From Candidatus Bipolaricaulota bacterium (GTDB lineage Bacteria > Bipolaricaulota > Bipolaricaulia > UBA7950 > UBA9294): 64,000 nt of DNA. The position numbers were made by a program, and so were the translations under genes. Shown here one piece after another: positions 20,852 through 43,300 of the stretch. The notes beneath the pieces were generated by a model, which was not told the DNA's origin, made no database searches, and saw only the letters and a list, made by a program, of their open reading frames with translations. Each line of letters opens with the position of its first letter. Position 1 is the stretch's first letter. The DNA lies in the NCBI GenBank assembly GCA_018817505.1, contig JAHITR010000021.1:1077-65076 (forward strand). Direction: 5' to 3'.

Positions 20852-20924
20852 GGGGCCGTATTATACGCATCCGTGCCTATCCCACGACACCCAACAGTGA
20901 TTGGGAACACGTGAGCGGTGGGCG

Positions 20925-20953
20925 TTGACAAATGGCAACACAGTCTATAGACT
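20925..20953 (+). promoter_or_regulatory. sigma70-like promoter TTGACA-N17-TAGACT; predicted TSS at or within a few nt of the ATG at 20960 (leaderless mRNA)
   Basis: Near-consensus -35 with 17-nt spacer. The -10 hexamer ends 6 nt before the start codon, and there is no SD sequence. Confidence 0.4.
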
Positions 20954-20959
20954 CGCTTC

Positions 20960-21667
20960 ATGCCCAAGGCTCAGTTCTCTGACATCCTTCACAAAGCCCG
21001 ATCAGACAAGGGTCTAAGCCTGCGTCAATTGGCTACCCAATCGGGGATTGAGTTCACGCGCCTATCTCGCATGGAACATGGCACGCGTCCAGCTCCCGGG
21101 CTTCCTGAGATGAGACGCTTGGCCGAACTACTCTCACTCAATCTCGTCGATCTGCTCGTTTCGGCGGGCACACCGCGCGAGGCAGTGGAGCAGTTGCTTT
21201 GGGTCGAGCGCATGCAACAAGCCAAACGGGTGAAGTACCTGGCGGAGTATCGCCCTGAGGGTCACCGCGCGGGGATCAAGAACGAGTTTGTCGCGACGGT
21301 TGTCGAGAGAGACGGCGCGTTCTGCAAAGCGATGATTGGCTCTGAGACCTGGTGCTTGCTGACATTCTCTGATGCAGCAGTTCTGCGCGTCATTGTGCCT
21401 CCAGAGGCGATCCTGATGTTCTCCGCCAGCCCGGAATCCATTGCATGGATGCCCTCTAACATCTTTCGCACGCGAGTCTGCAAGATCCGAAATGTCGGAA
21501 GACTGTTGAATCTCGTCCTTGAGGTTGGCGGAATTGAATTGAATGCCCTTGCGCTGAGCACACCGAACCATGATGTGCCGACAAAACTTGGCGATGAGAT
21601 GTTTGTTTCGATATCCCCGGTGGCTTTGTTGACCGAACCACTTGAACGCATGGAAGGAAGAACATGA
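20960..21667 (+). CDS. transcriptional regulator: XRE-family HTH + C-terminal TOBE (transport-associated OB, ModE-C/MopII-like) domain
   Basis: The N-terminus (...KGLSLRQLATQSGIEFTRLSRMEHGTRPAP...) is a Cro/C1-type HTH. The C-terminal ~70 aa (...RNVGRLLNLVLEVGGIELNALALSTPNHDVPTKLGDEMFVSISPVALLTEPL) fits the TOBE pattern. Its stop overlaps the next start (ATGA). Confidence 0.75.
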   Translation: MPKAQFSDILHKARSDKGLSLRQLATQSGIEFTRLSRMEHGTRPAPGLPEMRRLAELLSLNLVDLLVSAGTPREAVEQLLWVERMQQAKRVKYLAEYRPEGHRAGIKNEFVATVVERDGAFCKAMIGSETWCLLTFSDAAVLRVIVPPEAILMFSASPESIAWMPSNIFRTRVCKIRNVGRLLNLVLEVGGIELNALALSTPNHDVPTKLGDEMFVSISPVALLTEPLERMEGRT

Positions 21668-23157
21668 ACAGACAATGGTTGATTGGTACGCTCCTCGTTT
21701 TGGGATTGGCTTGGGCAGCGATCGCTTCTGGTTCGCCAGCCGTTTATGTGCAGACTGAAGCAGGTTTTGTCGAGGTTTTTTTGGGAGATTTTCCCCTCAT
21801 CGAAGGAACGGTTGCCTATGAAGGGCCTGCAACAGGCGATGGTGGGGCGAATTGGAAGAGCTCCAATACATACCGGGGTGTTTCCGTTCTTTCCATACTT
21901 GAGTCCGCGGGAGGGGTTGCTGGTGCCGACTCGCTAGGTATCGTCGCTGTTGACGGTTGGTATAAGAAGGTGCCCGTGTCCGTTCTTTCTGGCGACTCTG
22001 TCGCTGGTGTTCCGATTCTTGCCTTGGAGCGAAACGGTGAATCGGGCGATGATTGGGAAGATGGACCCATGTTGGTCTTTCTCCCTGAAGATGAGGCATT
22101 CAGCAATGACGACATGTTGACGGCCTTGGGGTCGGAATTCTCCCATTACTTTGGGGAGGAACCGTCCACGACGGGCATGATGGTGAAAGGCGTGGCCTAT
22201 CTTGTCCCCAATTATGATGGCTCCGCCCTCCCCCTTGAGCCCGAGGTTGTCGCCCCCGACGCGGCCAGCTTTCCGGACGGCAACGTCTTGACTGTCGTTC
22301 GTGGGGACGATTCGCTTGCCTATACGATGGAGGAGGTAGAGGCATTTGAGACGCTCGGAGGGCAGGGAACATTCACGACCTCGACCAATGCCGACTACAT
22401 GGCAAGCTATGTCGGTGTTCCCATGACGACGTTCATTGGCAATGTCAATTCCGACGCAACGATCCGGGTGACGGCCGCGGATGGGTACTCAATGAATTAC
22501 TCGGCGGAAACATTTCAGGACACCTCAGAAGGAACGTGGATTCTTGCCTACAAGGAAAACGGCAACTACATGCCATTTGACCCCGGCTACTTCCGAATCG
22601 TGAGGGTAGGAGACGAATCGACGCACTTCTCCAGCGCACTGTCTGCCAAGATGGTCGTACTCATTGAGATTCTCGGAGTCTACGTGGACTACGGCTTGGA
22701 GCTGACAGGGGCTGTGGAGCGAACGTTCTCTCGGTCCGAGTTGGAAGAGGGCGTTGGCTGTCCATGCCATGTGTCGACAGTGACCGTCACCAGCAAAGGT
22801 GTCGCCAGCGAATATACGGGTATCCCGCTGTGGCGACTGATCGCCTTTGTCGATGATGGCGTCTTCCCTGCCGCCGCGTTGGGCCTTCACTACAATGACA
22901 CCGACTTCAACGACGTGCTGGCCCAGGCCGGATACACAATCGATCTGGTGGCCTCCGACGGGTACACGCAGACCGTGACCTCGGATCTGATTGCCCGCAA
23001 CGATCTCTTTATCGTCGCATTCAAGAAAGATGGCGTGTTCCTGGATCCTGACAGCAATGGGTACATGCGATTTGTCTTTGATGACTCTGTCGGATTGCCC
23101 GAGGACTCGAATCTTCGATCTGTGAAGTTCCTGACCAAGATTCTGCTAGGGCTGTAG
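21664..23157 (+). CDS. secreted protein with three tandem domains resembling the sulfite-oxidase-family molybdopterin-binding fold (no conserved Mo-ligand Cys in domains 1-2; CPC in domain 3)
   Basis: Signal peptide MNRQWLIGTLLVLGLAWAAIASG. There are three ~140-aa units, each with a ...(A/V)xDGY..., ...(I/V)LA(F/Y)xxNGxx(L/M)..., ...G(F/Y)xR(L/I)Vxx... pattern, and the last unit ends ...RSVKFLTKI. Confidence 0.65.
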   Translation: MNRQWLIGTLLVLGLAWAAIASGSPAVYVQTEAGFVEVFLGDFPLIEGTVAYEGPATGDGGANWKSSNTYRGVSVLSILESAGGVAGADSLGIVAVDGWYKKVPVSVLSGDSVAGVPILALERNGESGDDWEDGPMLVFLPEDEAFSNDDMLTALGSEFSHYFGEEPSTTGMMVKGVAYLVPNYDGSALPLEPEVVAPDAASFPDGNVLTVVRGDDSLAYTMEEVEAFETLGGQGTFTTSTNADYMASYVGVPMTTFIGNVNSDATIRVTAADGYSMNYSAETFQDTSEGTWILAYKENGNYMPFDPGYFRIVRVGDESTHFSSALSAKMVVLIEILGVYVDYGLELTGAVERTFSRSELEEGVGCPCHVSTVTVTSKGVASEYTGIPLWRLIAFVDDGVFPAAALGLHYNDTDFNDVLAQAGYTIDLVASDGYTQTVTSDLIARNDLFIVAFKKDGVFLDPDSNGYMRFVFDDSVGLPEDSNLRSVKFLTKILLGL

Positions 23158-23166
23158 GCGGATATC

Positions 23167-24207
23167 ATGGCTAAGTCGAGCACGAGGTCACGATTCGATC
23201 TTCGGGACCTCGTGCTTATCGCGTTGCTCTCTGCAGTCGGCGGCGTGTTATCGACGTACGTTGGCTATCTTGGGAACCTGATCAATCGGCTGTTCGGCGT
23301 TCCGTTTGGTGCCGGGCAGTTGATCGCCGGTGTTCACGTGCTTTGGCCCCTGCTAGCTCGGGTCATCATTCGAAAATTCGGATCTGGAACGATGACCGGG
23401 CTTATCAAAGGGTTGGTCGAATTCCTCTCTGGCGGTACACACGGGATCGTCATCGTGCTGGTTTCCGTCATCGAGGGGCTGTTCATTGATGTTGGAATGA
23501 GCATGACTTCGCGCCGATCGTTGGGCGTGATGATGCTTTCGGGGGCTGTTGCGTCGGCAACCAATGTCTTCATCTTTCAGGCCATCTACTTCGCCAATAT
23601 CCCGTTGAGCCTGTTGTCCGGCATGGCGGGGCTTGCCCTTGTTTCAGGGGCGTTCTTTGGCGGTTACTTGGCGTGGGATCTGCACGATCTGCTGCGCAAG
23701 TCGCACCTCATTCGATCTGTGGCAGAATCCGGGACGAAGCAGCAGCGTGCCAACTGGTGGAGGCGCGGCGCGACTCTGCTTGTCGTAGTGATTGGCTTGG
23801 TTGGAGCTGCAATGTACTACCTCACAGTCTATGATCCATTTGCGACTCCAGACGCTGTGAGCATCGAAGGATCTGTCGCATCTCCCTACAGCTATTCTCT
23901 GACAGAAGGGGATGCTGCGGCTGTGACAATCCACGCCGAATTGATTGGGAGTACGATGACGCTGCCAGCGCAAGACTATACGGGGCCCTTGCTTCGTCAG
24001 ATCATTGAGCGTGCAGAGCCAGATGCCGGTGTGAGTTCCGTTCACGTGATTGCCGCGGATGGGTACGAGATCGAATTCTCATGGGATGCTGTCCAAGCAG
24101 ATGGGGAACTTCTTCTGACGCTGGAGAACGGCACCATTCGATTGGTGGCAGCCGCATACGATGGATCACATTGGGTCCAGCAAGTGAGGCGTATCGTTGT
24201 CCACTAA
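23167..24207 (+). CDS. ECF-transporter S component (substrate-capture membrane subunit) fused to a C-terminal extracytoplasmic SO-family-fold-like domain
   Basis: The N-terminal ~190 aa has 5-6 TM segments in an S-component-like arrangement. After a further TM segment (LLVVVIGLVGAAMYYL), the C-terminal ~120 aa (...HVIAADGYEIEFSWDAVQADGELLLTLENGTIRLVAAAYDGSHWVQQVRRIVV) is paralogous to the upstream secreted protein. Overlaps the EcfA start. Confidence 0.6.
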   Translation: MAKSSTRSRFDLRDLVLIALLSAVGGVLSTYVGYLGNLINRLFGVPFGAGQLIAGVHVLWPLLARVIIRKFGSGTMTGLIKGLVEFLSGGTHGIVIVLVSVIEGLFIDVGMSMTSRRSLGVMMLSGAVASATNVFIFQAIYFANIPLSLLSGMAGLALVSGAFFGGYLAWDLHDLLRKSHLIRSVAESGTKQQRANWWRRGATLLVVVIGLVGAAMYYLTVYDPFATPDAVSIEGSVASPYSYSLTEGDAAAVTIHAELIGSTMTLPAQDYTGPLLRQIIERAEPDAGVSSVHVIAADGYEIEFSWDAVQADGELLLTLENGTIRLVAAAYDGSHWVQQVRRIVVH

Positions 24208-25642
24208 GGCCCCACGCATCGAGGTGAAGGATCTCTGCGTTCAATTCCCTGAGCGAGAACGTTTGGCGCTCGATCATCTCACAGCAAGGATTGAGCCAGG
24301 CCAGACGCTGGCTATTACCGGCCCGTCGGGCTGTGGAAAGACCACGTTGCTTCGTACACTGGCCGGCTTCATCCCCGACATGATTCATGCTGACGTAAGT
24401 GGAGAGATTCAAGTCGACGATCAACTGCTGGCTGCTATCGATCTGGAACAACTGGCTGTGGCTATCGGGCTGGTTCAGCAGGACCCGGATGCTCAGGTCT
24501 GTACGTTGCGGGTACATTCGGAAGTGGCTTTTGGCCCAGAGAATCTCTGTTTGCCGCAATCAGAAGTGGCGTCACGCGTTGCCGATTCTCTGGCGGCACT
24601 GGGGTTGTCTCATCTCACAGGGCGTGAGACCACCTCTTTATCAGGGGGAGAGAAGCAGCGGCTCGCCGTGGCGGCTATCCTGGCGATGCATCCGTCGGTC
24701 ATCCTGCTGGATGAGCCAACAGCCCATTTGGATCCAGCGGGCGCAAGAGACTTGTTTGACCTATTGAACAAGCTGCAGCAGCAGACGGCATGCACGCTGG
24801 TTGTGGTTGAGCATCGATTGCTGCCGCTTCGTACGTTGAATCCAGAGATTTGGATCATGGATCAGGGGAAGCTTGTTGAGCGCGATGCGACGCGCATCCA
24901 CGAAGAAGTCGGCAGCCTTGCTCGCGCACGCGCCTCAGATCACGCAATCGTCTCGCGTGGTTTGGGGTCTCAGCCCGATTTGCGTGTTGAACACGTATCG
25001 TTCGGTTTCCAGCAGCCATTGTTCGAAGACCTCTCCTTTTCGCTCAAGCCGGGAATGATCCTTGGTATCATCGGCCCCAACGGCGGGGGGAAGACAACGC
25101 TCCTGCGTCTCATGGCGGAATTGGAGCGCCCGAATGAGGGAACGATCGTTCGATCGAGAGAGCTGCGCGTGGGGATGGTCTTTCAGCATCCGCATCAGCA
25201 AATCTTCGAGCGAACGGTTCATCGCGACCTGGAGATTGAAGGGCCACTCGATGAATCAACGCTTTGTGCTTCCCTCTCCTCTGCGCGTCTGACAGGTTTG
25301 GCGGCGGCAGCGCCGCACTCCCTCAGTCTAGGCGAACAACGCAGGTTGACGGTGCTGGCTGCTTTGCGCGGGGCGCCCGATCTGCTGCTTCTCGATGAGC
25401 CGTTCATTGGCCAGGATCGCGAGAATGTGTCGTGGATTGTCGGCCAAATCGAGCAGGCACGCTCGCGCGGGGCAATGATCTGCTTGGTCACACACGACAT
25501 TCCGATGGCCGCCGTTCTTTGCGATCGTCTGCTCTATCTTGGAGAACGCGTGATCTTTGGGCCCCCTGATGACGTCTTTAGCCAGTTATATGAGGATGAC
25601 CTTGGGGCATTCACGCCGGATTTTTGGGACATCAACCAATGA
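24197..25642 (+). CDS. ECF transporter energizing ATPase, fused EcfA1-EcfA2 (two ABC ATPase domains)
   Basis: Two Walker A sites (GPSGCGKTT; GPNGGGKTT), two ABC signatures (LSGGEKQR; LSLGEQRR) and two Walker B sites (ILLDEP; LLLDEP). TTG start at 24197; GTG at 24224 is an alternative. Confidence 0.85.
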   Translation: MSTKAPRIEVKDLCVQFPERERLALDHLTARIEPGQTLAITGPSGCGKTTLLRTLAGFIPDMIHADVSGEIQVDDQLLAAIDLEQLAVAIGLVQQDPDAQVCTLRVHSEVAFGPENLCLPQSEVASRVADSLAALGLSHLTGRETTSLSGGEKQRLAVAAILAMHPSVILLDEPTAHLDPAGARDLFDLLNKLQQQTACTLVVVEHRLLPLRTLNPEIWIMDQGKLVERDATRIHEEVGSLARARASDHAIVSRGLGSQPDLRVEHVSFGFQQPLFEDLSFSLKPGMILGIIGPNGGGKTTLLRLMAELERPNEGTIVRSRELRVGMVFQHPHQQIFERTVHRDLEIEGPLDESTLCASLSSARLTGLAAAAPHSLSLGEQRRLTVLAALRGAPDLLLLDEPFIGQDRENVSWIVGQIEQARSRGAMICLVTHDIPMAAVLCDRLLYLGERVIFGPPDDVFSQLYEDDLGAFTPDFWDINQ

Positions 25643-26406
25643 TTCGAAGCATTGTCTATCATCCTGGGACTCGCGGTCTGCACCGGGTTAACCCAGGGAC
25701 AGGGCTCCTCTTGCTGGCATGCCTCATGCTTGCTGTACTTGGAACCCGCGGCATCTGCGCCAAAATGGCGGCTCTTCTCCTCGTCTTTGGCCTTGCCGCG
25801 TGGTCCGAAGGATCTGCATGGGCATGGTGCAAGTCGCTCCGTTTTGTCATCCTGTTTGCTGCACTGCTGTTTCTCACTCAGGTCTTGTCAATTCGTGATG
25901 GAGAGATCCTGTTTCGCATGGGGATTCCCATCACCACAGCCGGGCTTGTTGCGGGTGCGAACATGGCACTTCGATTTCTCGTCGTCCTGTCTGCCAGTTT
26001 CATGTTTGTCTTGACCACAGATCCTGATCGCTTTGCCAATGCGCTCATTCGCTGGGGTGTTCCCTACCGCTACGGGTTTACACTGATTCTGGCACTACGC
26101 TTCGTCCCGTTCTTCCGCAACGAGCTGCGCATTGTTCGAGAGGCACAAAGATTGAGAGGGATTCAGACGTCAGTACGGTCGATTGGGGGCATTCGACGAG
26201 CGATCCGATACACGTTTATTCCTGTCCTGGTTTCTGGACTCATTCGCGTCGATACCATCGCCATGTCCATGAAGGGGCGTGCCTTTGGGCTGTATCCACG
26301 ACGAACGGTTTCATCTCATGCTGCGCTGACGAGGGAGGACCTGCTCATCTGGCTGTGCTGCGGACTCATCCTCATTGGAACGTGGGCGGCGAGGAGGTAT
26401 GCATGA
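25639..26406 (+). CDS. ECF transporter transmembrane T component (EcfT/CbiQ family)
   Basis: ATGA overlap with the EcfA stop. Multi-TM protein with the conserved EcfT coupling region (...RFANALIRWGVPYRYGFTLILALRFVPFF..., ...EAQRLRG...). Confidence 0.8.
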   Translation: MIRSIVYHPGTRGLHRVNPGTGLLLLACLMLAVLGTRGICAKMAALLLVFGLAAWSEGSAWAWCKSLRFVILFAALLFLTQVLSIRDGEILFRMGIPITTAGLVAGANMALRFLVVLSASFMFVLTTDPDRFANALIRWGVPYRYGFTLILALRFVPFFRNELRIVREAQRLRGIQTSVRSIGGIRRAIRYTFIPVLVSGLIRVDTIAMSMKGRAFGLYPRRTVSSHAALTREDLLIWLCCGLILIGTWAARRYA

Positions 26407-26933
26407 TTCGGCGCTGGACTCTGCAACAGGTGGCGCGTGGCGCTTTCGTTCTGCTCATTCTTCTTTGTGTAATCCCGCTTACCGTTCAGCGCTTGCGCGA
26501 ACCGCCAGGTCCTTCAATTGAGATTGTGTCTGCGAGCGGCGAGGTCCGAAAGGTTACGCTTTCGCAGATGAAGGCGATGTCTGTGCTGACGCGAGCAGGC
26601 AGCTATGAAAACCAATACGGGAATTGGCGAGACGAAGGTGTGTATTCTGGCATTCTGCTGATTGATCTGGTAGGGAATGCCGACTATTCATCGATCGATG
26701 TAGTCGCAGGTGACGGCTATCGCATCACAGTCGATCCAGAGCGCATACAGAATCCGGACTATCCGATGGTGCTGGCGTTCTGTATGGATGGCGCGGATGT
26801 TCCAGCTTGGGAAGATGGGTTTCGACTCGCCATTCTTCCCGAAGACGGCGGCGTGAGCAACGAAGAGTATGGCGTCGCTTCCGCGGGCAGTTACTGGGTC
26901 ATGCGCGTCGTCAAGCTTATCTCCAATCCGTAA
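26403..26933 (+). CDS. membrane-anchored protein with a single SO-family-fold-like extracytoplasmic domain (paralog of the domains in 21664 and 23167 proteins)
   Basis: ATGA overlap with the EcfT stop and a GAGGAGG RBS. N-terminal TM anchor (AFVLLILLCVIPL), then ...DVVAGDGYRITV...MVLAFCMDGADVPAWEDGFRLAILP...SYWVMRVVKLIS. Confidence 0.6.
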   Translation: MIRRWTLQQVARGAFVLLILLCVIPLTVQRLREPPGPSIEIVSASGEVRKVTLSQMKAMSVLTRAGSYENQYGNWRDEGVYSGILLIDLVGNADYSSIDVVAGDGYRITVDPERIQNPDYPMVLAFCMDGADVPAWEDGFRLAILPEDGGVSNEEYGVASAGSYWVMRVVKLISNP

Positions 26934-27099: not shown

Positions 27100-28248
27100 C
27101 TACCAGAGAACGCGGAATGTCCATGCCAACTCCCAATTGGAGCTGGCAAGGGGAAACTCTCCATCGAAGGCAAATGCAAAATTGGAGAACAGCTGGAATT
27201 CAAAGGATACGGTAATGAGCCCCATGCCAAACAAGGTTCCCGAAGGTGCCGGAGGGCGCTCAAAATAAGCGTCGATCTCAAGGTTGCCTTCTGATCCGCA
27301 GCATGATGGCAAGCAGGCTGAAATTCCGAATCGTTCGAAATAAGCGGCCTTCCCCGTGATGGAACTATTCTTGGCATCATCCAGCGAATCTGCAAACGTG
27401 AACGTCACGCAGTCGCTCACAGTGCATTGGCCGCGGATTCCATAGAAGCCCAGATTTTGAATCGTCAGCGGAGGCGCAACGGCAATCTCCCCCAGCAATT
27501 CGATATCTGAACAGAAGAACCAGGAGGGGGTAAATCTCAATGTCGGTGTGAGAACCTTCTCCTCTGCCGAGAAGACGATGGCTGCATCGAACGTGCCCTT
27601 GATTCCCCAGAAGTCCTCAAACAGGACAAGATCCGTCAATGTTGTCGTGATATTTCGAAATCCACTCGTGCAGTCAAATGCAGCACAAATCCCCATCGTG
27701 GCGAAACAGTCAAACCAAACCCAGTTTCCACATACGCTGGCCTCCCAGAATTCCAGGGGGCAGATTCCCAGCTTGATACTGCCTTGGAAACTGATGTCAT
27801 TAGCTGCTCCTGTGACAGACCACTGTGTGTAGGAATTTGTCTGAGGATCCACAACGCTGGTGACATTGGAGAATGCCAGATCCAGCAACGTGAAGGTCGC
27901 TCCAGATTGCCAAGAAATGAACGAGACGGTGGAAGGATTGAATCGAAGAGACGAGTTGAGGTTGATACCGCCCAACGGAGCGGAGGCAGAAAGAGATAGC
28001 GTATCGAATGAAGAATTCGACAGTCGAGCGTCCAATGATGCCGACGCCTCACCCCACCCTAGCACGAGGTTGATCGACGTTTTCGTAAGTGAGGCGGGCG
28101 TGGTCGGGGTGGTGGTAATGGTCAGGTCAAACAGCCCGCCGAGTGTTAGATTGGATCCTTGACCGTTCGCGGTCAACGCAAATCCTGTCAGCGATATGAA
28201 TGCACAAATCCCAATCAGCAGCAATCGTCTTGTCCGGTTCGTCTCCAC
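27100..28248 (-). CDS. secreted hypothetical protein (382 aa, Ser/Thr/Cys-rich, ends ...FRVLW); last gene of the giant-adhesin block
   Basis: GTG start with the signal peptide METNRTRRLLLIGICAFISLTGFALTANGQ. It lies 102 nt downstream of the 5131-aa gene on the same strand. Confidence 0.55.
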   Translation of the reverse strand: METNRTRRLLLIGICAFISLTGFALTANGQGSNLTLGGLFDLTITTTPTTPASLTKTSINLVLGWGEASASLDARLSNSSFDTLSLSASAPLGGINLNSSLRFNPSTVSFISWQSGATFTLLDLAFSNVTSVVDPQTNSYTQWSVTGAANDISFQGSIKLGICPLEFWEASVCGNWVWFDCFATMGICAAFDCTSGFRNITTTLTDLVLFEDFWGIKGTFDAAIVFSAEEKVLTPTLRFTPSWFFCSDIELLGEIAVAPPLTIQNLGFYGIRGQCTVSDCVTFTFADSLDDAKNSSITGKAAYFERFGISACLPSCCGSEGNLEIDAYFERPPAPSGTLFGMGLITVSFEFQLFSNFAFAFDGEFPLASSNWELAWTFRVLW

Positions 28249-28350: not shown

Positions 28351-31300
28351 CTAGGGCATCAACCCAAACCAAACGGGCAGAATGCCGCTATGCCTCGCAA
28401 ATACGGATGCAATGCCCAAACAGCGGCTGTGGGTGTGGAGATCCCAGAAATGGGTCGGCGAGATCAGCTGCACTCGATCCTCTACGATATGGGTCAGAAG
28501 TAGCCTCGACGCAGCACGCAGCGCATCGGCTTGCTCAGAAGGATGGGTGGCCAAAGCTGCCAGGAGATCGACGATGACGCTTAGCTGTCCCGGCGTGTGG
28601 CCCCATCCTCGAACAGCCTGCGGGGAGAGGATGTAGCCATCGATCTCTGGCCTATAGGCCTGAGCCATGAATGCTCTCCAATCACCCAAAACAGCCGATT
28701 GATAACCAAGATCACCTAGTGAATCACCAGCGAGGATCAAGACGAGGAGGCGACTGGCTTCCTCAATGGCATGGACCTCAGATCCTTGATCCAGAGCGCG
28801 TTGTGCCATGGCGCTCAGGATGCTATCTGCTGTACTACGCTCGCGAGTAAGAATATCCCTGCTCATCGCGATGGCCTTGGCCGCCATGCTGTGATCATAC
28901 CATCGAGCCACGGATGATGCGTCTGCAGTTTCCAGCGGCTCGGCGAATGCGCGAATCTCGGGATTCCAATGACGAACAAGCTGCTCGAACGTCTCCGTGG
29001 CCAGTTGCTCGGCCAATCGCTGCCCTCGGCTGTCGAGCACACCAGGCTGTGCTGCAGCGATCAATCCGATCAGCAGGGATGCCTGATCATAGACCGTACT
29101 ACGTGTATCACTGACGCCATAGGAGACATCTTCTCCTGCGACGATTGCACGCAGGGCATGAGGAAGGTACGGAGCCCCCGATTCGTTGAGAATCGTGGAC
29201 GTCGCGATCCATGAGAGCTGATTGTCGAGGGCGAATCGAACCCACGCCGCCAAGTAGCGATGAAGGGGGGTGTCGGTTCGGGCGCATGACACCACGTATT
29301 GAGCCTCGCGTGCCAATGTCCAACCAAGAGCTGCGGGGGTGATCACGGCGCTGGTAGGGGGGAACCCCAAGCCGTTTGCCAAGGTAGGAACGCCGCTTTC
29401 ATAGGGCAGGAAGATTGAGGAGCCAAATGAAGGAATTTCAGGCAGATCTGACGCAAGGGCGAAACGATTCAGAGTGTCTTCTAGACTGACCGTGCGGTTG
29501 TCCGTTGTTGGCAGTTGTGGAGCGTAGCGAACAGGGACACCCAGTCCAGATTCACCTAACAGGACCCCGACATTCTCATCTGCGAGCTCATGGGCCAGTG
29601 TTGCATACCGCCAATTCAAATCTGGGATGCAGGCCAACGCGTCTAGCGCGGTCGCCAGGTGCATGGCTTCATCGGTCATGTACTCAGCTTCAAGTGTTTC
29701 GAGAACGCCAGCCATTCCCGTTTCTTGCGATTGGATCTCGACGTCAGCGCATGCCTCACGCGGAGGTTGCGGCTCGCCCGCGACGTTCTCATACGTGAGT
29801 GTGGCACAGTTCTGAAGCAGATCGCCGACTGCGGTATCTGCATCGACGCGAGCGAGAATCTGCCACGTACGCTCTTCAGTTGGCAGAAGATCGTCAAAGC
29901 TCCATTGGATCAAGGGATTGTCTTGTTCGCGGACAGGGTCGGTCGCAATGACCGTGACCCCCGCAGGGAGGAGATCTTCAAGAACCAGATTGTAGAACGT
30001 CTCATCGGTGATGTTCTCAGCGGAAAGAGTGTAGCGAATCGTGTCGCCTGGCTCGGCCCAGTCAGCCCCTTGCGACAGCACCGGCGATTGGAAGCAGGCG
30101 AGGGCGTCAAATACAGGGGCAAGCGAGCGTTCTGCTGCGATCGAGGGGGCTTGAGACGAAACCAAGCCTCCCGGCAGATGCAGCGGGACTCCGTCCAGAA
30201 TGCGATCGATATGTGACGCTAGCCTCGTCTCGAGCTGCCATCGATCCACACCCGTGAGCTGGTTGGCCATACGAGATAGCGCATCAACTGCCAAGGCGAA
30301 ATCGAGCGGGGTGACGCACCATTCAAGTAGCGAGCTTTGTGTCCGATAGACGAATAGCGACGGATCCCAGAATCGCGCATCAAGCGTTTTGAATGCGTCA
30401 AGGACAACCTCTGCCTTCAGTCCGAGCCAGCGCTGAGCTATCTGTAGCGCGCGCAATGCAGCGGTTTGTCCGGCGAAAGTCTGACGATCACAATCAACAG
30501 ACGACTCAGGAATGACAGGCCAGGACTCGTCGAATCCTCCGCGGGCATCCACGAGAGTCTCCCGGAGGAATGATACTTCCTTGGAGAGGAGGACCAGCGC
30601 TCGGCTCCCGATGCTGGAGCTCTCCCCGAAAGACTCCAGAATATGATTTAGGGCAGTTGCCAACATGCCAAGATTGACGAGGGAAACGGAATCTGAGCGA
30701 ATCCATCCGCTGAGCGTCGGACTGGCCTCTTCGACGAGGATGTCTGCCACAGGGTCGAGATGAGCAACCTCTAGTGTGCGCATGACGTCCTCCGCAAGTC
30801 CCAGAACCATGCTTCGCCAGTCCGTGCTTGGGAACGGTTGCGCGTCTAGGATCGATTCGATCCTCGAGTCCGATAACAGTGAGTAGGTCTCAGATAGTCC
30901 AAGCAAGAGCGACAGTTGATCGAAGATCGAGCTTCCGCGATCAAGCGTATTCCAGGAATACGCAGCACCTAGGTTCCGCGCCGTGGCATGAGGGACATAC
31001 GAGACGTCGTTGGGGCCTAACTGCTGCAGTTCTCGCAAGACAACGATCTTTTGAAGGATCGACGCCAGAAGCACACGCTGACGGAATGCTTCATACGATT
31101 CTCTGTCTTCAAGATCGAGCAGCTGGCGCGCCTCCTGTGCTTCGCGTAGGAGCGTCATGCCTTGAGCAGACGCCAGGACTCGCGTGTCGAACGTGCTGGG
31201 ATTCCAGGTCAGGGTGTTCATGCCTGTTTCCGGGCTTCCCGCAGCATACGGAATGGCGATTGGAGCCAAAGAATCGGCAACCAGCGGGAAGTTGGTTTCA

Positions 31301-34300
31301 GAGGCGAATCCCTCAATGGCTGACTGTAAATCGGGCATGTCGTCGAATCGAATCCCCAGACCTGAATGCAATGTAACGGCATTGAGGTTGGCGTCCGCGT
31401 AGTCTTCGATTGCTGCGACGCGATCCTGGATCACGAAGGCCGCGAACATGGAGATATCCGTCTGATACCAAGGATCACGCTCGACGACAGACCAGCCCCT
31501 GCATGAATCCTCTCCGGGATTCTCGTTATCCAGACAGAGTCTCTGCTGGAGCACAGGGGCCAGACGGCCGAGGATGCCATCTGTGGAGACCGGGGCAATC
31601 GTTCCCGTGCTACTGAGGTGTGAAAAACTTGCGTTGGCAGGAGAAGCATTGGCCAACTGGAGCGCTGCATCATCGACGATCGTTCGGATGAATCCGCTCA
31701 TTCGACTCAGGATGTGAGCACTGCGTTCTTCTGTTGATTGAAGCGCGAGTTCACGCAATGCACCTGTCGCTAGGCCAATCTCAAGGGGAGTGTAGCAATA
31801 GACCTTCTCGTCAGAGGTTGCGAAGCTTGCGTACAGCCCGGATCCCATTTCGCCAACCCACATTCGGTCGTCCAGGGCGTTGAACGCAGATTGTGCGGAG
31901 GTCAAAGCACCAACGACGAGGTCGGATCCGGCAACCAACCCTCGAATCCCTGCCAATTGAGGCAACAGAGCCCACGCGTTCTCTGGGATTGATGTCTCGG
32001 CTACCGAGAACCAACCCGCATCATTCTGTCGCGCGATAAGGGCGATTATCGCGAGACGTTGTAGATCAGTAAGCATCTCCCTGTCGCTCTCTGCGACGAC
32101 ATCCTGTGCACTCTCCAATGCCACGAGGAGCAAACCCAGGTCACGTGTTGTGGCTGCATCGCCGTTCGCTTGTCCCGGACCCACTCTGTTTATCCATTGC
32201 CGATCTGCTGTGAGATGGAGTGCGTTGATGGCAACAAGCGTCTCGTGTAGGACGTTGGCGACAGAATGGAGCACCCGGTTTCGAAGATCGCTTTCCTCTG
32301 CAGGCCAAGCACTTTCCAAAGACCCAACAAGAGATGATGCCTCAGACAATCCCCAGAGCAACGATAGCTGATCGAAGAGAGTGCTGTCGTCATCGACGAC
32401 TGTGGTGTCGGACGTATCAAGGTTCCATCGTGACGCATGCGGAATATAGGGTGTGTTGTGGTCCGGGCGAAGCGTGAGATTGCTCTCCAGGGCGATGATT
32501 TTGTTCGAAAGGATATCCAGGAGGACCCATCCCAGGAAGTGGTCGAGCGGGACGGCGCTGGCAAGCAACGTTTCAATCTCCATGGACTGTTTGACTAGGC
32601 CCATGCCCAGCGCACTGGCGACAATATCCTCGTCTGTCACAGTCCAGTGTCCAGAAGGGCCCAAGAGCCCGTCATCCCATACGTCATAAATGGGCTCTCC
32701 ACCTTCATATTCGAGGAAGATCCACTGTTCAGCCAACGGCAGTGAGGCATTGGCAACTTCGGCTCTCGTGGCCAATTCACTCAGTCGCTGTTCCAGAATT
32801 GCCGTGGCAGACAAGTTTCGGGCCTCAGCCTGTTCCAGAATCAACGGAGCATGGATCAAACCAACGCCCAAGGAGGAGAGCACGTCGACTTGCATAAGAT
32901 TGTCGAATGCATAGTCGGCCGTTTCGGATCCGACCGTGCGTATCCACGTTGGGAGCAACGATTCAGGGATCAAGCTCGCAGCATCGGGAACAGAATGAAG
33001 AAGTTCAAATTCAGCAGCGGCATACATGGCAATGTCCGTCTGGAACCACAATCTGTCCACAGTTGCATTCCATGTCTCGCAGACGTTGTCAGAGAGAACC
33101 TCTGATGTCTTGCGAAGGATCGGCAACGGAACGAGGCTTCCGCCTTCCCCTTGGGCATATGCGGATCTGCCGATGAGGGTGACTTGGGAGGCGTCATCGG
33201 GGTCGACATCGCCGGGGACCGATTCTCTTTGATCTTCGGGTATCGCAGTGCCGCTTGGGTCGAGGCCCGTCGCCTTCATGGTATTCGTATAGGCAGACCC
33301 GTCATAAATGGGGCCCGTGACGAAGGCAAGGAATCGAATCTCTAGACGATCGCCGGGACGCAGCGTGGCATTGAGCGACCACTGCAAGCCACTGAATCCT
33401 GCGAAAGGATCGGCAAACGAGCTGCCAAGTGGCCAAGCGGCGCTTGACGTGGCGTCGACATATCCGAATGCAGTTGGGAGCTGATCTGTGATATTGACAT
33501 TGCTCGCAGTGGCTGCCCCGACGTTTTGCACCGTCAGTGCAAACTCAACAATGTCGCCCTCTTCAATTCGGTTATCGTAGAGCGGGGCGCCGGATCGGAT
33601 GATCTCGGTCACTCTTTTGGTCGTCACCAAGGCAGGAACCTCTGCGATGCCGGTCAGAGAAACGTCATCACGATCATCGAGATCTGTGTCGCTGGGGACA
33701 TCGCCTGAACGATTGGGCGGAATCTGAGTTCCCAGCCCGTCCGTTCCCTCGGCCTCCAAAACGTTCGTGTAGACACTTCCCGGATTCACACCTCCATTGA
33801 CCAACGCCTCGAATGTCAGCGTCAACGTATCTCCAGGGCTCAACGTCGCATCTGTGTCCCACAGCAGTGCGGGGCCGGGAGCGCCCGTCGGGTTGCGTGT
33901 GAAGACGCCAATACGATAGGGCCACGTCCCTTGCGTGCTGCTGGATACGAAGGAGAACGGGCTGGGCAGCGCATCGCGCACGCCAACTTCATAGGCGGTT
34001 CCACCTCCCACGTTGGTCACGAGTAGCTGGTAGGTCACCAGATCAAAGGCCTGTACGGTATCCTTGGCACCTAGTGAGCTGCCATTGCGAACGACATTGA
34101 GAATCGCCTTGTCCGTAATGAGTGCGGGAACGGCTCCCATCAGGCTGACGGCACTGGAATCGTCCGGATCATCATCTTCTGGCGCGACAGATCTGTTGTC
34201 AGGCGGAATCGGGGTGCCGACTGAATCTTTGCCGGTTGCGATTACGATGTTCGTATAGACTTTGCCTTGCTGGATTTGTGACGTCACCAAGACATCGAAA

Positions 34301-37300
34301 CGAACGACGAGTTCCTCTCCTGAATCGAGATTTGCGTTCAGAGTCCATACCAATGTCGGACCAGGTACCCCCGTCGGATCACTGGTGGAGCTTCCTGATG
34401 GCCAGGACGCGACCGTATGGCCCTGATAGTGGAACCCTGCAGGCAGTATGTCTCTCATATTGACTGCCTGTGCTGGGCCTGTCCCCACATTGGCGACAGC
34501 AACCTCGTAGGTCACGACATCGCCAGGTTCAACTATCGAATCTGTGAGAGTTGTCCCTTGCCGATTGATGGAGACGACAGACTTCCTGGTGACAAGTGCT
34601 GGCGCGCCAACCCGTACCGAGGCAATGCCCGTATCATCGGCATCAGGATCCTCTACATCGTCGTCAGACGTGTCTCCGATACTTGCGTTCTCTGGGGGGA
34701 TCTGCGTTCCTGCGCCATCGACTCCGGCTGTCGAGACTGTGTTCACGAGATCGATGCCAGGCGCGGCGGAAGGTGTAACGAGAACGGTGTACACGGCGGT
34801 CAGTTCTGCTCCGCCATTGAGAGTCGCGTCGATCGAAGTGGAGAAGGTGGTTGCCCCATCGGGCAGCAATAGCGATCCACTTGTTGATGGAGAGGAAACC
34901 GTATAGCTACCGCTGTTCCCAGGCGCGGTCGTTTCTGTCTCCAATCCAGCAGGAATAGAATCGGTAAATTCCACGGCATAGGCAGTCCCGAGCCCGACGT
35001 TTCGAATTGTTACTGTGTATTCGACTACATCGAGGTACAGCAGTGGATCGACTATGCCAATGGGGACTCCGCCGCGAATCACGTTGGTCACACGTTTGTC
35101 CAACGTGAGCGCAGGCTGTCGCGTCTCCAGAATCACGATGCCTGTGTCGTCGGCGTCGGGGTCCTCTGCATCGTCATCCGACACGTCACCCACGTCAGCA
35201 TTCTCACTCGGAATCGGATTGCCTGCCCCATCAACACCCGTAGCGGCGGCGACGTTGATGAGATCCACGCCCTGCTGAATCGCGCTGGTGACGTAGGCCG
35301 TGTACTGGGCAACGAGCTGGCCTCCGCCATCGATTGTTGCATGGATGGTTGTTGTGAATGCACTCACACCGTCGGCTAGTCCGGCCAGCGGTGCGTTGCT
35401 TACCGAAGGATCGGTCACATCATACGAACCGGCGATTCCCGGCGCATTGATCTCGGTCACCATGCCAACAGGCAGGGTGTCCGTGAAGTCCACGTTGTAG
35501 GCCGTTCCGAGGCCGACATTGCGGATCGTGTAGCTGTAGAAAACCACGTCGCCCGGCTCGACCGGCTCGGCGATGCCAATGCTCAACCCACGGCGGATGA
35601 TTTGGGTGATGATCTTGTCCACGGACAGGGCCGGCTTCTCAGTTCCGATGACGGCGATGCCCGTATCGTCTGCGTCTGGATCTTCAGCATCGCTGTCGCT
35701 CGTATCTCCGATTGCTGGATTCGCATCTGGAATCTCGGTTCCGAATCCATCGAATCCGATGGCTTCCGCTGTATTGACGAGATCGACGCCCTGTTCGATA
35801 CCACTGGTGACCACAGCAGTGAAGTCTGCGGCGAGCACCGCTCCGCCAGCGATTGTTGCGCCGAGCGTCGTGGTGAAGGTGACAGCTCCCGCTGCCAGAC
35901 CGAGCGATCCACTGTCAGCTGGAGCCGAGACCGAGTACGTTCCCCCTACCACGGTTTGCATGCCTGGAGGCAGCGTGTCGGAGAACTCGACTTCGTAGGC
36001 GGTGGCACCGCCCACATTTGTGACCGCGAAACGGTACGACACAACATCTCCGGGCTCTACCGGTCCTGAGATACCGATACTGGCACCGCCGCGAGTGATG
36101 TCTGTGATCGTTTTGTCCACTGACAGCGCTGGCACGAGGACGCCAACGGTCACGATGCCCGTGTCATCGGCGTCCGGGTCTTCTGCATCCGTATCACTGG
36201 TATCTCCAAGAAGCACGTTCTCCGGTGGAATGGCCGTACCATCTTCCCGCTCGCCGTACGCGTGAGCGGTGTTGGTGAGTTGATCGCCTTGGGCCACAGC
36301 ACTGGTGACAATGGCAGTGAACGTTGCTGTCAGCGTCTCGCCGGCATTTACGGTCAACCCGAGAGGGGCGTTGAACGCTGTGGCTCCATCGCTCAAGCCG
36401 AGCGATCCGCTTGCAGCGGGGGCTCCCACGACGTAGCTTCCCGCATTCCCAGGGGCGTTCGTTTCCGTGACGATGCCTGCAGGTAGCGTGTCATCAAACC
36501 CTACGCTGTATGCCGGCACAGGGCCGACGTTCTCGATCATGAACTGATACACAATGACGTCACCGGGTTCTACGGGCCCGGTGATGTTTCCGATGCTGAC
36601 TCCCCTACGAAGGATGTCTGCGATGACCTTGTCTACGGACAAAGCAGGAGTTGCGTACCCGAAATCCTGTTCGCGATTGTGCTCGCCCGCAGCAAGCACG
36701 TAGTCCGACGTGTGTGCAGTGCCGAGGCCATCGTAGTCGTAGGTTTGCGCCAATCCATCAGGAAGCGTGGTGTCATCAACCGTGATCGTATAAGCACCTG
36801 CTGGCAAGAAATCGAATAAATAGAGACCGTTCGCATCCGTCGTTGTGGTCAGGATTTCATTGATGCCGTCTCCGTCCACATCGCCCTGGAGCGTCACCGA
36901 GACATTCGCGATACCATTTTCAGATGGATCTTGGACGCCATCTCCATTGATATCGAACCAGACATAGTCGCCGATGGAGCCGCTGCCCCGATAGCCGAAA
37001 TCTTGCTCCCGGTTGTGCTCGTTCTCGGCCAACGTGTAATCCGAGGTGTGCGCCGTGCCCAGACCGTCATAATCGTAGGTCTGATTGAGACCGGCGGGCA
37101 GTGTGTTCACTTGGACAGTGATGGTGTAGTTGCCAGCTGGTAGATCATTGAATACGTACTCGCCATTGGCGTCTGTCGTCAGCTCAGCCGTGTAGTCGAT
37201 GAAGCCATCATTGTCGAGGTCCCCTTCAATGATCACGATGACGCCAGGGATGCCGTCCTCACCAGGATCTTGAACACCATCGCCATCGAAATCGAACCAG

Positions 37301-40300: not shown

Positions 40301-43300
40301 ACGGTCCCATCATTGGTGACGTCGATTTCCCATGTGGCTTGGCCACCGCAATCGATGGCTTCCCCTGGGGCAGGACTCACTTGGCGAACCGCCGTAAGGA
40401 CGACGGACGGTGTCAAGCCGATGGTGAACGATCCGATATTCGACAATCTTGGAGTCTTGCATGGGTTTTCGTAGGTCGCCTGGAAAGACAGGCTCCCTCC
40501 TTGGAACCCACAATTCACCGTGTAGTCAAAGCGAATCTTGACGACGTCCTTGGGGGCCATGTCTGACAACGTGGCGACTTGAGCGGACGTCCAAGTCAGC
40601 AGTTGTCCGACGATAGCGGGCTCGCCGGCCGGATTCCACACGGTGCCTCCATCTACGCTGAATTCGGGGTTTCCCAGATACGCAAGCCCTGCAGGTAACG
40701 TAACATTGGCGGCAATGTTGTACAGCGTCGTGACGCCAGCGTTCTTCATCGTGACTGTCGCGGGATTATCCGAGCACATCGGCACAGGTGTCGGACTGAA
40801 TGAGGTGGCGACGAGTTTGCCTGTCGGGACGATGACGGACGAGCTGTCAGTTCTTGGTGCCTGACAGCTGGTGTCGTCACATCCCCACGAAGCGGCAATA
40901 TTGTTGGTGAGTCCCGTGCACGCGACGAGCTCAGCCGCTACGGTGATTGTTCGCAATTCTCCTGGCTGTAGCTCATCGATGATCCACGAGACGCCATTGA
41001 TGGCTCCGCCCTCATGATTCACGTTCGGGTACTCGGTCGCACCGGCGGCATTGTCGATGGACGAACCAGCCGCGTTGTAGATCAATCCGCTTCCCAGCGT
41101 GTCATCAACCCACGTGTTGTAGGCCACGCCATTGCCTGTGTTGTGGACGACGACAGACCAGGACACGTACCGCGTGGTCGCATACAAAATCTCGGGGGAC
41201 TTGCGTGTGTAGACGTCGGCTGATAGAGACAGGCTTGCTTGATCCGAAGATGAGGTCGAGCACGAGTCATCGTACACGGCATCATCGTGACAGCGATCAT
41301 CGAACAGGGCGATGACGGACAGATCGGCGAGTGGGCCGCCACAGGGGACGGTGACGGGAAATGTAAGAGTCGCTTCGTTCCCGGTGACAAATGCATCAGC
41401 GAAGCGCCATTCATAAGTACTTCCACCCGCTACAGGGGCCGTACACGTTGTGCCGTCCGTCGGGCTTGCGTCACCCATGCACACGGCTTGAGACATATCA
41501 ATAATCGAGCCACCGGTGTTGGTGAGAACGAGCCGGACATCACGCGGTGCGGCAAGGTCCGAGGTGCGATTGAGCGTAATCGTGACGTCATAGGTGGCAC
41601 AGTATTCCTGGATCGTTGGGATCCCATCGATGGACACGGACATGGCTGGCGGTTGTGCGATGACAGGGAGGCGTTGTGCGGGATCTGCGTACATCGTGCC
41701 GCAGTAGTCGATGCTGGTGGCTCCCGGATCGAGCTCAATGCCGGCATCGATGGGATAGCTGGATGCGGTGCAGCTTGCGTCATCCAGGCCGAGCACGCTC
41801 AGGTGGTAGCTGTAGACGATCGTCCTGTTTCGTACGGAAATGGGATCCGTCAGGCGGAGCTCCAACCTGCCCGCCGGGGTTCCATCGACTACAGCCCCCA
41901 ATGTTGCACCCGTGACTGCCGCAGTTCCGGGCTCGTACAGCAAGTCGCCGTTTCCATCCACGAAGTAGGTGAACTCATTGAGTAGAAGGTCGTCGAGGGC
42001 TGGATCGTTTGCGAACACGTAGGTGTGCGTGACCTCGACATCGTAGCTTGATGAGCAGCGCACCACCGTAGTTCGATTGAGACTCATGGTCGATGAGAAC
42101 AGGGCGACGCCATCTCCATATCCCTCACAGAGAATGGTGGTTGCCGCTGACGCGGTTCCCGTGATGGTGCAACCGCAACAATCTGTGCCTGTTGCCGTCA
42201 CCGTATTATCGTCCGTTCCTCCGCCAGGAATGGCACAGTATCCACAGTCGGTTGGCGCCTGGAGTTGGATTGTCTCATCAAACGGAGGATCGGCAGGATT
42301 GTAGGTCCAGGTAATGGTGCGAGCGCCTCCATTGACGATTCCTCCGGCTGGCTCGATGACCGCGAATCCCTCGGGATACGTGTCGACAATCGTTATGGCT
42401 CCAGGACTGCTTCCCCCGCAGTCCACGCTGCCGACATACTCGACCGTGATGTCGTAGCTGCCGATCTCGCCAAGACGCAGAGATTCAGGACCCATCTTCG
42501 TTACCGCGAGCGATGGACCTGACTCCGAAGTGCAATTGGAGAACTGGGGATACGCGACGAAAGGGATGCCGCAGTCATTGGAGTACGTTAGCTCGAAGGT
42601 ATTCAGTCCACTAGGCGGCCCAGCGCACCAGTCGACACTCTCGTGAAGAATGTAGAAATCGAGAGAGAACGTCTCTGCAGGTGCGATATCGGGAATCGTG
42701 AAGCAGCCATCCGTGTACGACACGCCGCTGGGAAGGCGAGAGAGGTCGACTTCATAAATGTGGATTGAGCAGCAGAGTTCCACATTCCTCGCTGAGCCTG
42801 CTCCATTATTGACGATGGGTATTTGTACCTGTGTTTCATTGGAGCAGTATGCGAGAACGACGTCCGGCACATCGAGCGATAGATCCGGATTCTTGACGAT
42901 GAGATTGAGCGAGGCAGTCGCGGTCCCTTCATCCGAGGCAGTATCGTAGCAAACATCGTCTCCGCCGCAGCCCCAAGTGGCATTGACCTCATTGATCAGA
43001 TTGGCGCACGAGACGACCTCGGCAGTCAGCTGAACGCTGGCTGTATCGCCTACTGCAATGGAACCCAGTGCCGGTGTGGTCCCTGCATTCCACGTGGTTG
43101 TTTGACCTGCATTGGATCCTCCGTCTGATGCGGCATTAAAGGCCAATCCTGAGTCGAGGACGTCTACAATTTCTACGTTGGATACTGTACCTAGGCCCGT
43201 ATTCTCAACCGTAATCGTCCAAGTGACGGGATCGCCCACTGAGGCGTCTTGAACAGACGGGGTCTTGCTGATCACGACGGCCCCGGGCAGGATCTCAACG

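Follow-up and report, generated by a model that had tools for sequence, protein, structure and literature searches.

An ECF-type transporter operon with repeated SUOX/PruR-like domains is linked to tungsten/molybdenum-cofactor regulation in strict anaerobes

Energy-coupling factor (ECF) transporters are textbook importers that work without external binding proteins, and their S components are known mainly as binders of vitamins and cofactor precursors. Group I ECF transporters can recruit extra outward-facing subunits, as in NikMNQO with NikK/NikL and CbiMNQO with CbiN, and a salvage system that relies on hydrolysis outside the cell is known in NadN-PnuC-NadR. To our knowledge, no transporter for molybdopterin-type cofactors, or for pterins generally, is known in bacteria or archaea. 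A 2026 review of pterins describes how these compounds cross the membrane as not understood. Here we describe an operon located at positions 20925-26933 of a 64-kb window (the whole stretch of 64,000 nucleotides (nt) that was analyzed, from a contig of a Candidatus Bipolaricaulota metagenome-assembled genome (MAG)). Its six packed genes, all on the + strand, encode a regulator, a secreted three-domain protein, an S-component fusion, a fused EcfA1-A2 ATPase, EcfT and a membrane-anchored single-domain protein. As judged from sequence and structure models, the transporter of this operon is a dedicated one of group I, similar to YkoEDC, for which import is predicted, and the system would break the ECF rule, with as many as five tethered binding domains in one protein. 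Three independent regulatory devices found across the family, namely a riboswitch, a TOBE domain and a TunR-like regulator, tie this ECF system to W/Mo cofactor homeostasis, and we favor a molybdopterin-type pterin as its substrate over tungstate or molybdate, giving the pterin about an even chance of being correct. The components belong to known superfamilies; it is the architecture and the likely substrate class that are new, and a search of 8 million full texts found no paper linking ECF transporters with the molybdenum cofactor (Moco) riboswitch, with Mo/W or with molybdopterin (MPT), the single match concerning CbiMNQO only.

The S gene (23167-24207, +) encodes a protein of 346 amino acids (aa) that was recognized by PF09819 with E=3e-21 and whose core of six helices (aa 12-186) matched YkoE (5edl) with E=9.6e-10. 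The AlphaFold2 (AF2) model of the fusion had a predicted local distance difference test score (pLDDT) of 80.9, and a Foldseek search with its membrane part returned 5edl with E=1.8e-7, a target-normalized TM-score (TMt) of 0.81 and a root mean square deviation of 2.1 Å. The core is followed by a disordered basic linker and a seventh transmembrane helix (TM7; aa 197-222), with the basic residues K190, R193, R198 and R199 before TM7, and then by an outside domain (aa 228-346, nt 23848-24204). The next gene (24197-25642, +) encodes the fused EcfA1-A2 ATPase, a 481-aa protein with two ABC_tran domains (Pfam, 1e-53 in two stretches; NCBIfam ECF_ATPase_1, 2.5e-76, and ECF_ATPase_2, 3.5e-78). EcfT (25639-26406, +) is 255 aa long when counted from the ATG, with a TTG at 25624 as an alternative start, and matched CbiQ (PF02361, 8e-29) and TIGR02454 (5e-20); its sequence shows LALRFVP and MKGRAFG, which, by the XRX signature, we take to be the Arg coupling motifs. 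An earlier sequence-only reading of the window had proposed an ECF-type locus, and these results bear that architecture out. The same six-gene set was obtained from an independent gene call on the source contig. The ATGA start/stop overlaps, which had been described as present throughout, were found at three of the five junctions (regulator/secreted protein, ATPase/EcfT and EcfT/anchored protein) but not at the other two, where a 9-nt gap separates the genes of the secreted protein and the S component, and the S and ATPase genes overlap by 11 nt, with a TTG start. In public annotations, members of the family appear as 'ECF transporter S component', 'thiamin/HMP transport permease' (HMP, hydroxymethylpyrimidine), 'metallophosphoesterase' or 'hypothetical protein'.

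The domain at the end of the S fusion recurs in two other products of the operon, the secreted protein (21664-23157, +; 497 aa) and the membrane-anchored protein (26403-26933, +; 176 aa), the latter being identical to the NCBI entry 'hypothetical protein KKG90_01545 [Candidatus Bipolaricaulota bacterium]' and having no match in Pfam. A family hidden Markov model (HMM) built from related loci found exactly five copies in the window, the number originally counted, all of them within the operon and with domain E-values of 1e-18 to 3e-32. Three of these make up the secreted protein, namely D1 (aa 24-173, nt 21733-22182, +; 3e-32), D2 (aa 205-329, nt 22276-22650, +; 6e-24) and D3 (aa 338-492, nt 22675-23139, +; 4e-26), and the others are the outside domain of the S fusion and aa ~36-175 of the anchored protein. 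In a self-comparison, the anchored domain matched the 497-aa protein at three places (independent E-values 2e-8 to 2e-5) and also the C-terminus of the S fusion. Pfam PF00174 (Oxidored_molyb) matched the 497-aa protein in three stretches (E=4.6e-9, 36.5 bits versus a cut-off of 24 bits) and the C-terminus of the S fusion weakly (0.061). Searches of PDB sequences with the single 497-aa sequence or with a narrow profile of the anchored protein returned nothing useful, and a profile of diverse copies together with fold comparison was needed. The profile of 32 diverse domain copies matched SorA with E=5.6e-12 and PruR (7kom) with E=2.1e-10, over nearly the whole PruR chain. The AF2 model of the anchored protein, based on 42 homologues, had a pLDDT of 92.3, and a Foldseek search of the PDB with it gave 34 matches at E<=0.001, every one of the sulfite oxidase (SUOX) fold, with PruR as the best (7kom, 7kos, the neopterin complex 7rkb, and 7kp2; E 5e-7 to 8e-5, TMt 0.67-0.75) and sulfite dehydrogenases/oxidases, YedY and nitrate reductase after it. 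The C-terminal domain of the S fusion retrieved SorA (2blf, 5e-6), YedY and PruR. By these profiles and models the repeated domain has the SUOX fold, in agreement with its first assignment to the sulfite oxidase family.

As had been proposed, the three-domain protein appears to be secreted, by the Sec and not the Tat route: by hydropathy, the 497-aa protein starts with a Sec-type signal peptide (aa 1-23), which has no twin arginine, while the 176-aa protein has at its N-terminus a signal-anchor helix (aa ~7-32) preceded by two arginines. By the positive-inside rule, all five domains would thus face outward, and since they would be exported unfolded, via Sec or a signal anchor, they would carry no pre-inserted cofactor. 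D1, D2, the S fusion and the anchored copy have no Cys at or near the Mo-ligand position, so the predicted loss of this residue from most copies holds for four of the five. In both AF2 models the hairpin on which the enzymes bear this Cys is long and not truncated (anchored protein, strands 61-69 and 75-85; fusion, strands 252-260 and 265-275), and its tip presents conserved polar residues (an invariant YxNQxGNW in the anchored type) and neither a Cys nor the Pro-Trp of PruR. These features support the view that the four copies, the Cys of D3 being left aside, are cofactor-free modules outside the membrane rather than Moco enzymes. In PruR, an Asn hydrogen-bonds the pterin, a Tyr stacks on it and a Trp is the second stacking residue (PMC11194511). 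In the profile alignment a nearly invariant D-G-Y of the present family falls on the N-D-Y of PruR, the Tyr being aligned and the Asn being replaced by a nearly invariant Asp; D104-G105-Y106 and W165 are invariant in the anchored type, and, among the five copies, the C-terminal Trp is confined to those attached to the membrane, in the S fusion and the anchored protein.

The fusion of an S component with this domain is widespread. At least 488 full-length homologues were identified, a library of 1.84 billion representatives held about 40 full-length clusters at 50% identity, and a genome scan yielded 80 loci, all in strict anaerobes: Bipolaricaulota, Bacillota, Thermoplasmata, Methanofastidiosa, Methanocella sp. 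MCL-LM and one Halobacteria MAG. The Bacillota carriers include Syntrophomonadaceae, Syntrophaceticus, Pelotomaculum, Dethiobacteria and the cultured Anoxynatronum; Desulfuribacillus alkaliarsenatis and Methanocella are also cultured, and the existence of cultured carriers makes the substrate question experimentally tractable. The order S-A-T was invariant in the 80 loci wherever the contig extends far enough, and in about 70 of them one to several exported proteins with 1-5 domain copies are encoded 5' of the S gene, some of these proteins being anchored by S-layer homology (SLH) or dockerin modules. The contexts of the operon in Bipolaricaulota were syntenic. In five archaeal loci a heliorhodopsin gene (PF18761, 7e-97) lies immediately 5' of the operon (L031 2008-2796, L039 1432-2286 and three other Thermoplasmata).

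The link to tungsten and molybdenum was seen most directly in the regulatory elements of these loci. In Bacillota loci the Moco RNA motif RF01055 lies directly 5' of the operon, with Rfam scores of 64-79 bits versus a threshold of 36, and with a covariance model built from ten Rfam-detected copies a same-strand Moco RNA was found just 5' of the first operon gene in 21 original loci and three further contexts (24 altogether), one of the further contexts having tandem copies. The P3 hairpin was missing from 10 of the 10 aligned Rfam-detected copies. Regulski et al. (2008) showed that the P3-less form of the Moco riboswitch correlates with tungsten-cofactor (Tuco) metabolism and occurs on tungstate transporters, and they noted as unexplained exceptions two P3-less RNAs 5' of 'putative sulphite oxidase' genes in Syntrophomonas wolfei. 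These S. wolfei genes are most likely members of the present system, which, if so, accounts for the anomaly.

Genes for Mo/W oxyanion importers share some of these operons or clusters. In two Bacillota MAGs (L041 95-9445 and L044 15-9432), one riboswitch-led operon encodes in order a TupA-like binding protein, a permease, an ATPase, MFS_MOT1, a phosphoesterase-domain protein, S, A and T. The same operon also encodes a 111-121-aa unknown protein, and a second riboswitch in these two loci is followed by genes for a dockerin-containing protein and an ~800-aa protein without a Pfam match. In Desulfuribacillus and another contig, a FecCD/ABC/Peripla_BP_2 (type II) importer is encoded amid SUOX-like genes of the same cluster (L086 1977-4993 and L088 4975-7900), the L088 cluster lying 3' of tandem P3-less riboswitches at 3448-3565 and 3734-3848; FecCD/Peripla_BP_2 is the family of the MolBCA molybdate/tungstate system. 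TunR-like regulators (HTH_1+PBP_like_2) flank the operon in Anoxynatronum and in one metagenomic contig, where a Mop-like TOBE gene is also found beside it, and FdhE-like and xanthine-dehydrogenase-family genes are near the operon in some loci. No Mo genes were found in the Bipolaricaulota neighborhoods compared, and the Rfam scan of the window revealed no riboswitch, neither Moco (RF01055) nor thiamine pyrophosphate (TPP), in or near the operon. Given the Moco riboswitches, the TunR-like regulators, the co-located Tup-, MOT1- and MolBCA-like importers, the exported phosphoesterases and the kinase-like gene described below, the link to the W/Mo cofactor is strong, and the placement of the system in a W/Mo-cofactor regulon is well supported. 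The idea of a Mo/W or pterin substrate, which the sequence-only reading had put forward with caution, thus gains independent support from the P3-less riboswitches of 24 loci, the TunR-like regulators, the Mo/W importers and the pterin-binding nearest structures; neither an unrelated fold nor a consistent linkage to another vitamin was encountered.

Two side observations concern riboswitches elsewhere in these loci. A second, unrelated and solitary ECF S component (PF12822, 178 aa) with its own P3-less Moco riboswitch is encoded just 3' of the main operon and 5' of a xanthine-dehydrogenase-family Moco enzyme (L022/L024 11254-12037; L085 16882-17665, Anoxynatronum), and by its sequence and position it would be another ECF-type uptake gene in the Moco/Tuco regulon. 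In L016 (10514-11706), a minus-strand P3-less riboswitch faces a + strand gene, and no plausible minus-strand gene comes after the riboswitch; the + strand gene was read by eye as TrmO_N-type with an FmdE-like C-terminal half, and PF01980 TrmO_N occurred in two neighbor proteins in the census of neighboring genes.

In Bipolaricaulota, to which it is confined among the carriers, the connection to W/Mo would be made by the regulator encoded by the first gene of the operon (20960-21667, +; 235 aa). The helix-turn-helix (HTH) domain of this XRE-type protein (aa 6-66) was clear (Pfam HTH_31, 2e-7; HTH_3, 3e-6). The C-terminal half (aa ~105-225) is a tandem TOBE-like region: a profile of nine orthologues matched, over aa 106-223, residues 230-344 of ModC (3d31) with E=5.5e-4 and Mop (1fr3) with 0.38, and the C-terminus of NCBIfam WtpC matched the regulator at 3.9e-4. 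The Pfam TOBE model had no match on the window regulator itself; it matched four of nine homologues (best 1e-4), and TOBE_2 matched five of nine. A conserved (K/R)N motif stands where TOBE domains have 'ARN'. Taken together, these comparisons give moderate support to a TOBE domain in the C-terminal half, and the XRE-HTH/TOBE composition first read from the translation holds by way of the homologues.

The promoter-like element of the operon (20925-20953, +) consists of TTGACA (20925-20930), a 17-nt spacer and TAGACT (20948-20953), with 10 of 12 consensus matches in the two hexamers, and only 6 nt separate the -10 hexamer from the ATG at 20960, a distance so short that a leaderless mRNA is implied. 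An imperfect 20-bp palindrome, GCGTTGACAAATGGCAACAC (20922-20941, +), overlaps the -35 hexamer. The palindrome, with the family consensus GTGTTGACAnnTGnCAACAC, both hexamers and a spacing of 6-10 nt to the start codon were kept in nine of nine Bipolaricaulota loci compared, whose regulators are only 37-60% identical. This conservation across diverged loci supports the leaderless transcript that had been proposed, and one that is probably auto-repressed, the palindrome over the -35 hexamer being the probable operator of the XRE/TOBE regulator. A second, perfect 12-bp palindrome, AGTCTATAGACT (20942-20953, +), overlaps the -10 hexamer of the window promoter and was found in none of eight orthologous promoters.

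Outside Bipolaricaulota, two kinds of accessory genes accompany the transporter. In most Bacillota and archaeal loci a gene for a membrane-anchored calcineurin-like metallophosphoesterase lies immediately 5' of the S gene. Its metal-binding motifs (GDxQG, GD, GNHD, H and GHxH) are intact, and its C-terminal domain is of the same subtype as the anchored protein of the window, so that the 176-aa protein corresponds to the metallophosphoesterase protein without its enzyme part. Three further Metallophos clusters were found among the neighbors in the census. In Methanocella sp. MCL-LM (L064 9497-12374), the ECF genes are followed on their 3' side by genes for a PF00174 protein (297 aa), an unknown protein (285 aa) and an NPP-type phosphodiesterase (PF01663), the last of which seems to stand in, as a non-homologous enzyme, for the Metallophos protein of other loci. 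In addition, 22 loci of Bacillota, Thermoplasmata, Methanofastidiosa and Methanocella (for example L016 9438-10295, +; L031 9292-10092, -; L064 12375-13037, -) have a gene for a kinase-fold protein of ~240 aa directly adjoining ecfT. The two genes point the same way in Bacillota; in archaea they converge, and their ends overlap. All catalytic residues (Lys, Glu, Asp, Asn and Asp) are invariant in the kinase-like protein, and Pfam APH and RIO1 each matched 13 of 14 members. When the kinase-like, Metallophos, NPP, TupA, MOT1 and second S-component proteins were searched against the 64-kb window with tblastn, nothing was found.

We favor a pterin ligand because the only Cys-less proteins of the SUOX fold to have been characterized are pterin binders and their contact Tyr and Asx are kept here, because ECF S components typically bind vitamins or cofactors, because exported phosphoesterases and an adjacent kinase fit a scheme of trimming, import and rephosphorylation, and because the carriers are strictly anoxic, where an oxygen-labile cofactor could survive outside cells. 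The presence of oxyanion importers in the same operon likewise argues for a non-redundant substrate. As we infer the mechanism, the five outward modules would capture a scarce pterin-type ligand (Moco/Tuco, metal-free MPT, a precursor or a breakdown product) from anoxic surroundings and pass it to the S component, which would topple in the EcfT/A1A2 scaffold and release it inside at the cost of ATP. The XRE/TOBE regulator, sitting on the -35 palindrome, would repress its own operon, with tungstate or molybdate as the signal. In Bacillota and archaea, the exported phosphoesterase may dephosphorylate the ligand or split its dinucleotide form outside, with the kinase rephosphorylating the product inside after import. 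That the whole constitutes the first dedicated prokaryotic uptake system for molybdopterin-type cofactors, in which surface arrays of PruR-like domains, aided in many lineages by an exported phosphoesterase trimming off dinucleotide or phosphate groups, scavenge the cofactor that neighboring cells release in anoxic habitats, the ECF transporter imports it and a small kinase rephosphorylates it in some lineages, is a more tentative proposal, to which we give rather less than an even chance.

Several points weigh against the pterin proposal. Free Moco/MPT is very labile, and we know of no bacterial uptake of either. The operon of the window has neither a phosphoesterase nor a kinase gene by tblastn, Moco-biosynthesis genes were not recurrent beside the system in the neighbor census, and the closest PDB relatives of the kinase-like protein are Bud32, with RIO also close, so that it may have another role. 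With a predicted TM-score (pTM) of 0.52, the S-fusion model is uninformative on the placement of the outside domain relative to the S component. Of the three types of regulator, two (TOBE and TunR-like) sense the oxyanion and not the cofactor, which would fit metal uptake at least as well as uptake of a pterin. Finally, PruR binds small non-Moco pterins, and its cleft has been described as too short for Moco (PMC11194511).

The strongest competitor is an ECF importer for tungstate or molybdate in which the SUOX-like modules would concentrate the anion (as such, in thio form or as a complex) or present it to the S component, and we regard this as a real but distinctly less probable explanation. 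All the regulators, that is, TOBE with (K/R)N, TunR-like proteins and the P3-less Moco riboswitch, are classical for metal uptake, metal transport is also the theme of the operons shared with TupABC, MOT1 or MolBCA-like transporters, the hosts are anaerobes relying on W enzymes, and the lack of a phosphoesterase and a kinase in the window's own operon also speaks for it. Ni and Co are examples of other metal ions taken up by ECF systems. However, binding of Mo/W oxyanions in the absence of the pterin cofactor is not known for any protein of the SUOX fold. The nearest structures are those of pterin binders, and the Tyr and Asx that contact the pterin are conserved. A third or fourth importer for the oxyanions within one operon would be redundant, and it is not obvious what the exported phosphoesterases and the kinase-like gene would do in anion uptake. 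If tungstate were nevertheless the substrate, the system would represent a fourth, structurally unprecedented class of W/Mo importer.

It is improbable, in our judgement, that the SUOX-like proteins are instead real Moco/Tuco oxidoreductases or reductases, with the ECF transporter taking up their product or supplying or retrieving their cofactor. Enzymes that use the cofactor can also be under riboswitch control, and Regulski et al. read the S. wolfei genes in this way; some Bacillota paralogues score strongly on PF00174. A further argument for enzymes comes from the D3 subtype, 87 instances of which from related loci show a nearly invariant Cys, in many cases with a His after it (CPCH in the window, aa 373-376, nt 22780-22791, +); the Cys stands ~25 residues before Y-x-G-x-P-L-W, a spacing roughly comparable to that of the Mo-ligand Cys. 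The subtype also has an insertion of 20-30 residues (…FND.LA..GY…), and in the profile alignment of D3 to SorT/SorA the N-terminal part had no reliable alignment, so that the D3 Cys is at most a candidate equivalent of the Mo-ligand Cys; D3 might keep a metal or cofactor ligand. Against catalysis, the other four window copies have no candidate Cys, export by Sec or a signal anchor and not Tat would leave no cofactor travelling with the protein, and no dimerization, haem or other redox domain was found in the domain-bearing proteins.

We consider it very unlikely that the modules are sensors of an external pterin signal that gate the transporter or another membrane partner, as in PruR-DcpA: the only characterized Cys-less SUOX-fold proteins do act in this way, but no DcpA-like GGDEF/EAL or histidine-kinase partner was linked to the system, ECF subunits were the partners in 80 of 80 loci, and up to five domains per protein, SLH/dockerin anchoring and covalent fusion to the substrate-binding subunit point to capture rather than signalling. 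An ordinary YkoEDC-type transporter for thiamine/HMP or another vitamin, with the extra domains as decoration, is equally far from probable. The homology of the S core to YkoE, the YkoD/YkoC-like layout of fused ATPase and T, and the JGI name 'ABC-type thiamin/hydroxymethylpyrimidine transport system permease' speak for it; against it are an S core only ~25% identical to YkoE in the Foldseek structural alignment, a consistent linkage to Mo/W regulators and transporters, and the finding of only Moco-type riboswitches, with no TPP or other vitamin riboswitch in the window and the 11 Rfam-scanned loci. The thiamine annotation was rejected on the grounds of the missing TPP element and the Mo/W linkage.

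Should the favored pterin be the cofactor itself, Moco/Tuco would be a shared good in anoxic communities, like B12, and cofactor uptake would imply W/Mo cofactor cross-feeding in syntrophic and subsurface communities.

The surroundings of the operon in the window contain very large genes. Directly 3' of it, on the opposite strand, are a gene for an ~360-aa protein without a Pfam match (27100-28248, -) and an open reading frame (ORF) of 5131 aa with CLIPPER, CARDB and SdrD_B repeats (28351-43746, -), and a giant adhesin-like gene was found in the equivalent position on other Bipolaricaulota contigs (5719 aa and 1543 aa). Farther along, a c-di-GMP-I (cyclic di-GMP) riboswitch (RF01051, 54.5 bits; 54539-54631, -) lies just 5' of an ORF of 2839 aa (45877-54396, -), presumably a giant surface protein controlled by c-di-GMP.

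Among known systems, the transporter itself most resembles YkoEDC(F), the group I thiamine/HMP transporter of Bacillus subtilis (YkoE, 5EDL), with which it shares the S core, the fused double ATPase, the dedicated T component and the organization in one operon. Unlike YkoEDC(F), it adds TM7 and a SUOX-fold domain to the S component and has two more exported domain proteins; it has no TPP riboswitch and no YkoF, its control is by TOBE, TunR-like or Moco-riboswitch elements, and all six genes are otherwise accounted for. The modules are closest to PruR, which binds pterins in the periplasm of Agrobacterium, Vibrio and Klebsiella (7KOS, 7KOM, 7RKB and 7KP2) and is likewise a small exported module of the SUOX fold that lacks the Mo-ligand Cys and has no other domains; the two align at the stacking Tyr and at the Asx two positions before it, and the C-terminal Trp is present in two window copies. 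In contrast to PruR, they lack the P-W motif, have no DcpA-type partner, are arranged in tandem arrays or fused to transporter or phosphoesterase, and belong to anaerobic Bacillota, Bipolaricaulota and archaea and not to Proteobacteria; their hairpin is ~25 residues long in the AF2 models, whereas that of PruR is truncated (PMC11194511). With the SUOX enzymes (SorA/SorT, chicken sulfite oxidase and YedY/MsrP) they share the fold, the motifs Y/WxGVxL, LAxxxNGxxL, GxPxRLV and WVK, and the block aligned to the family DGY, where SorA has LDG and no Tyr. They differ from these enzymes in the loss of the Mo-ligand Cys from four of five copies, in lacking dimerization and haem domains, in using Sec where the enzymes are Tat-exported or cytoplasmic, and in their domain unit of ~120-155 aa. 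The C-terminal half of the regulator resembles the TOBE sensors ModE, Mop and ModC, including a basic-Asn motif at the 'ARN' position, but its DNA-binding domain is of the XRE/Cro type and not the winged helix of ModE, and its mRNA is predicted to be leaderless; architectures like that of TunR, the tungstate regulator of sulfate reducers, flank homologous operons. The likeness to NadN-PnuC-NadR is one of logic only, in that related loci, though not the operon of the window, which has no phosphoesterase or kinase, encode an exported phosphoesterase, an importer and a cytoplasmic kinase-fold protein. Finally, NikK/NikL and CbiN are unrelated in fold to the modules described here and serve Ni/Co cations, whereas the present system adds to its ECF transporter a multi-copy soluble binding domain together with a C-terminal fusion of that domain to the S component.

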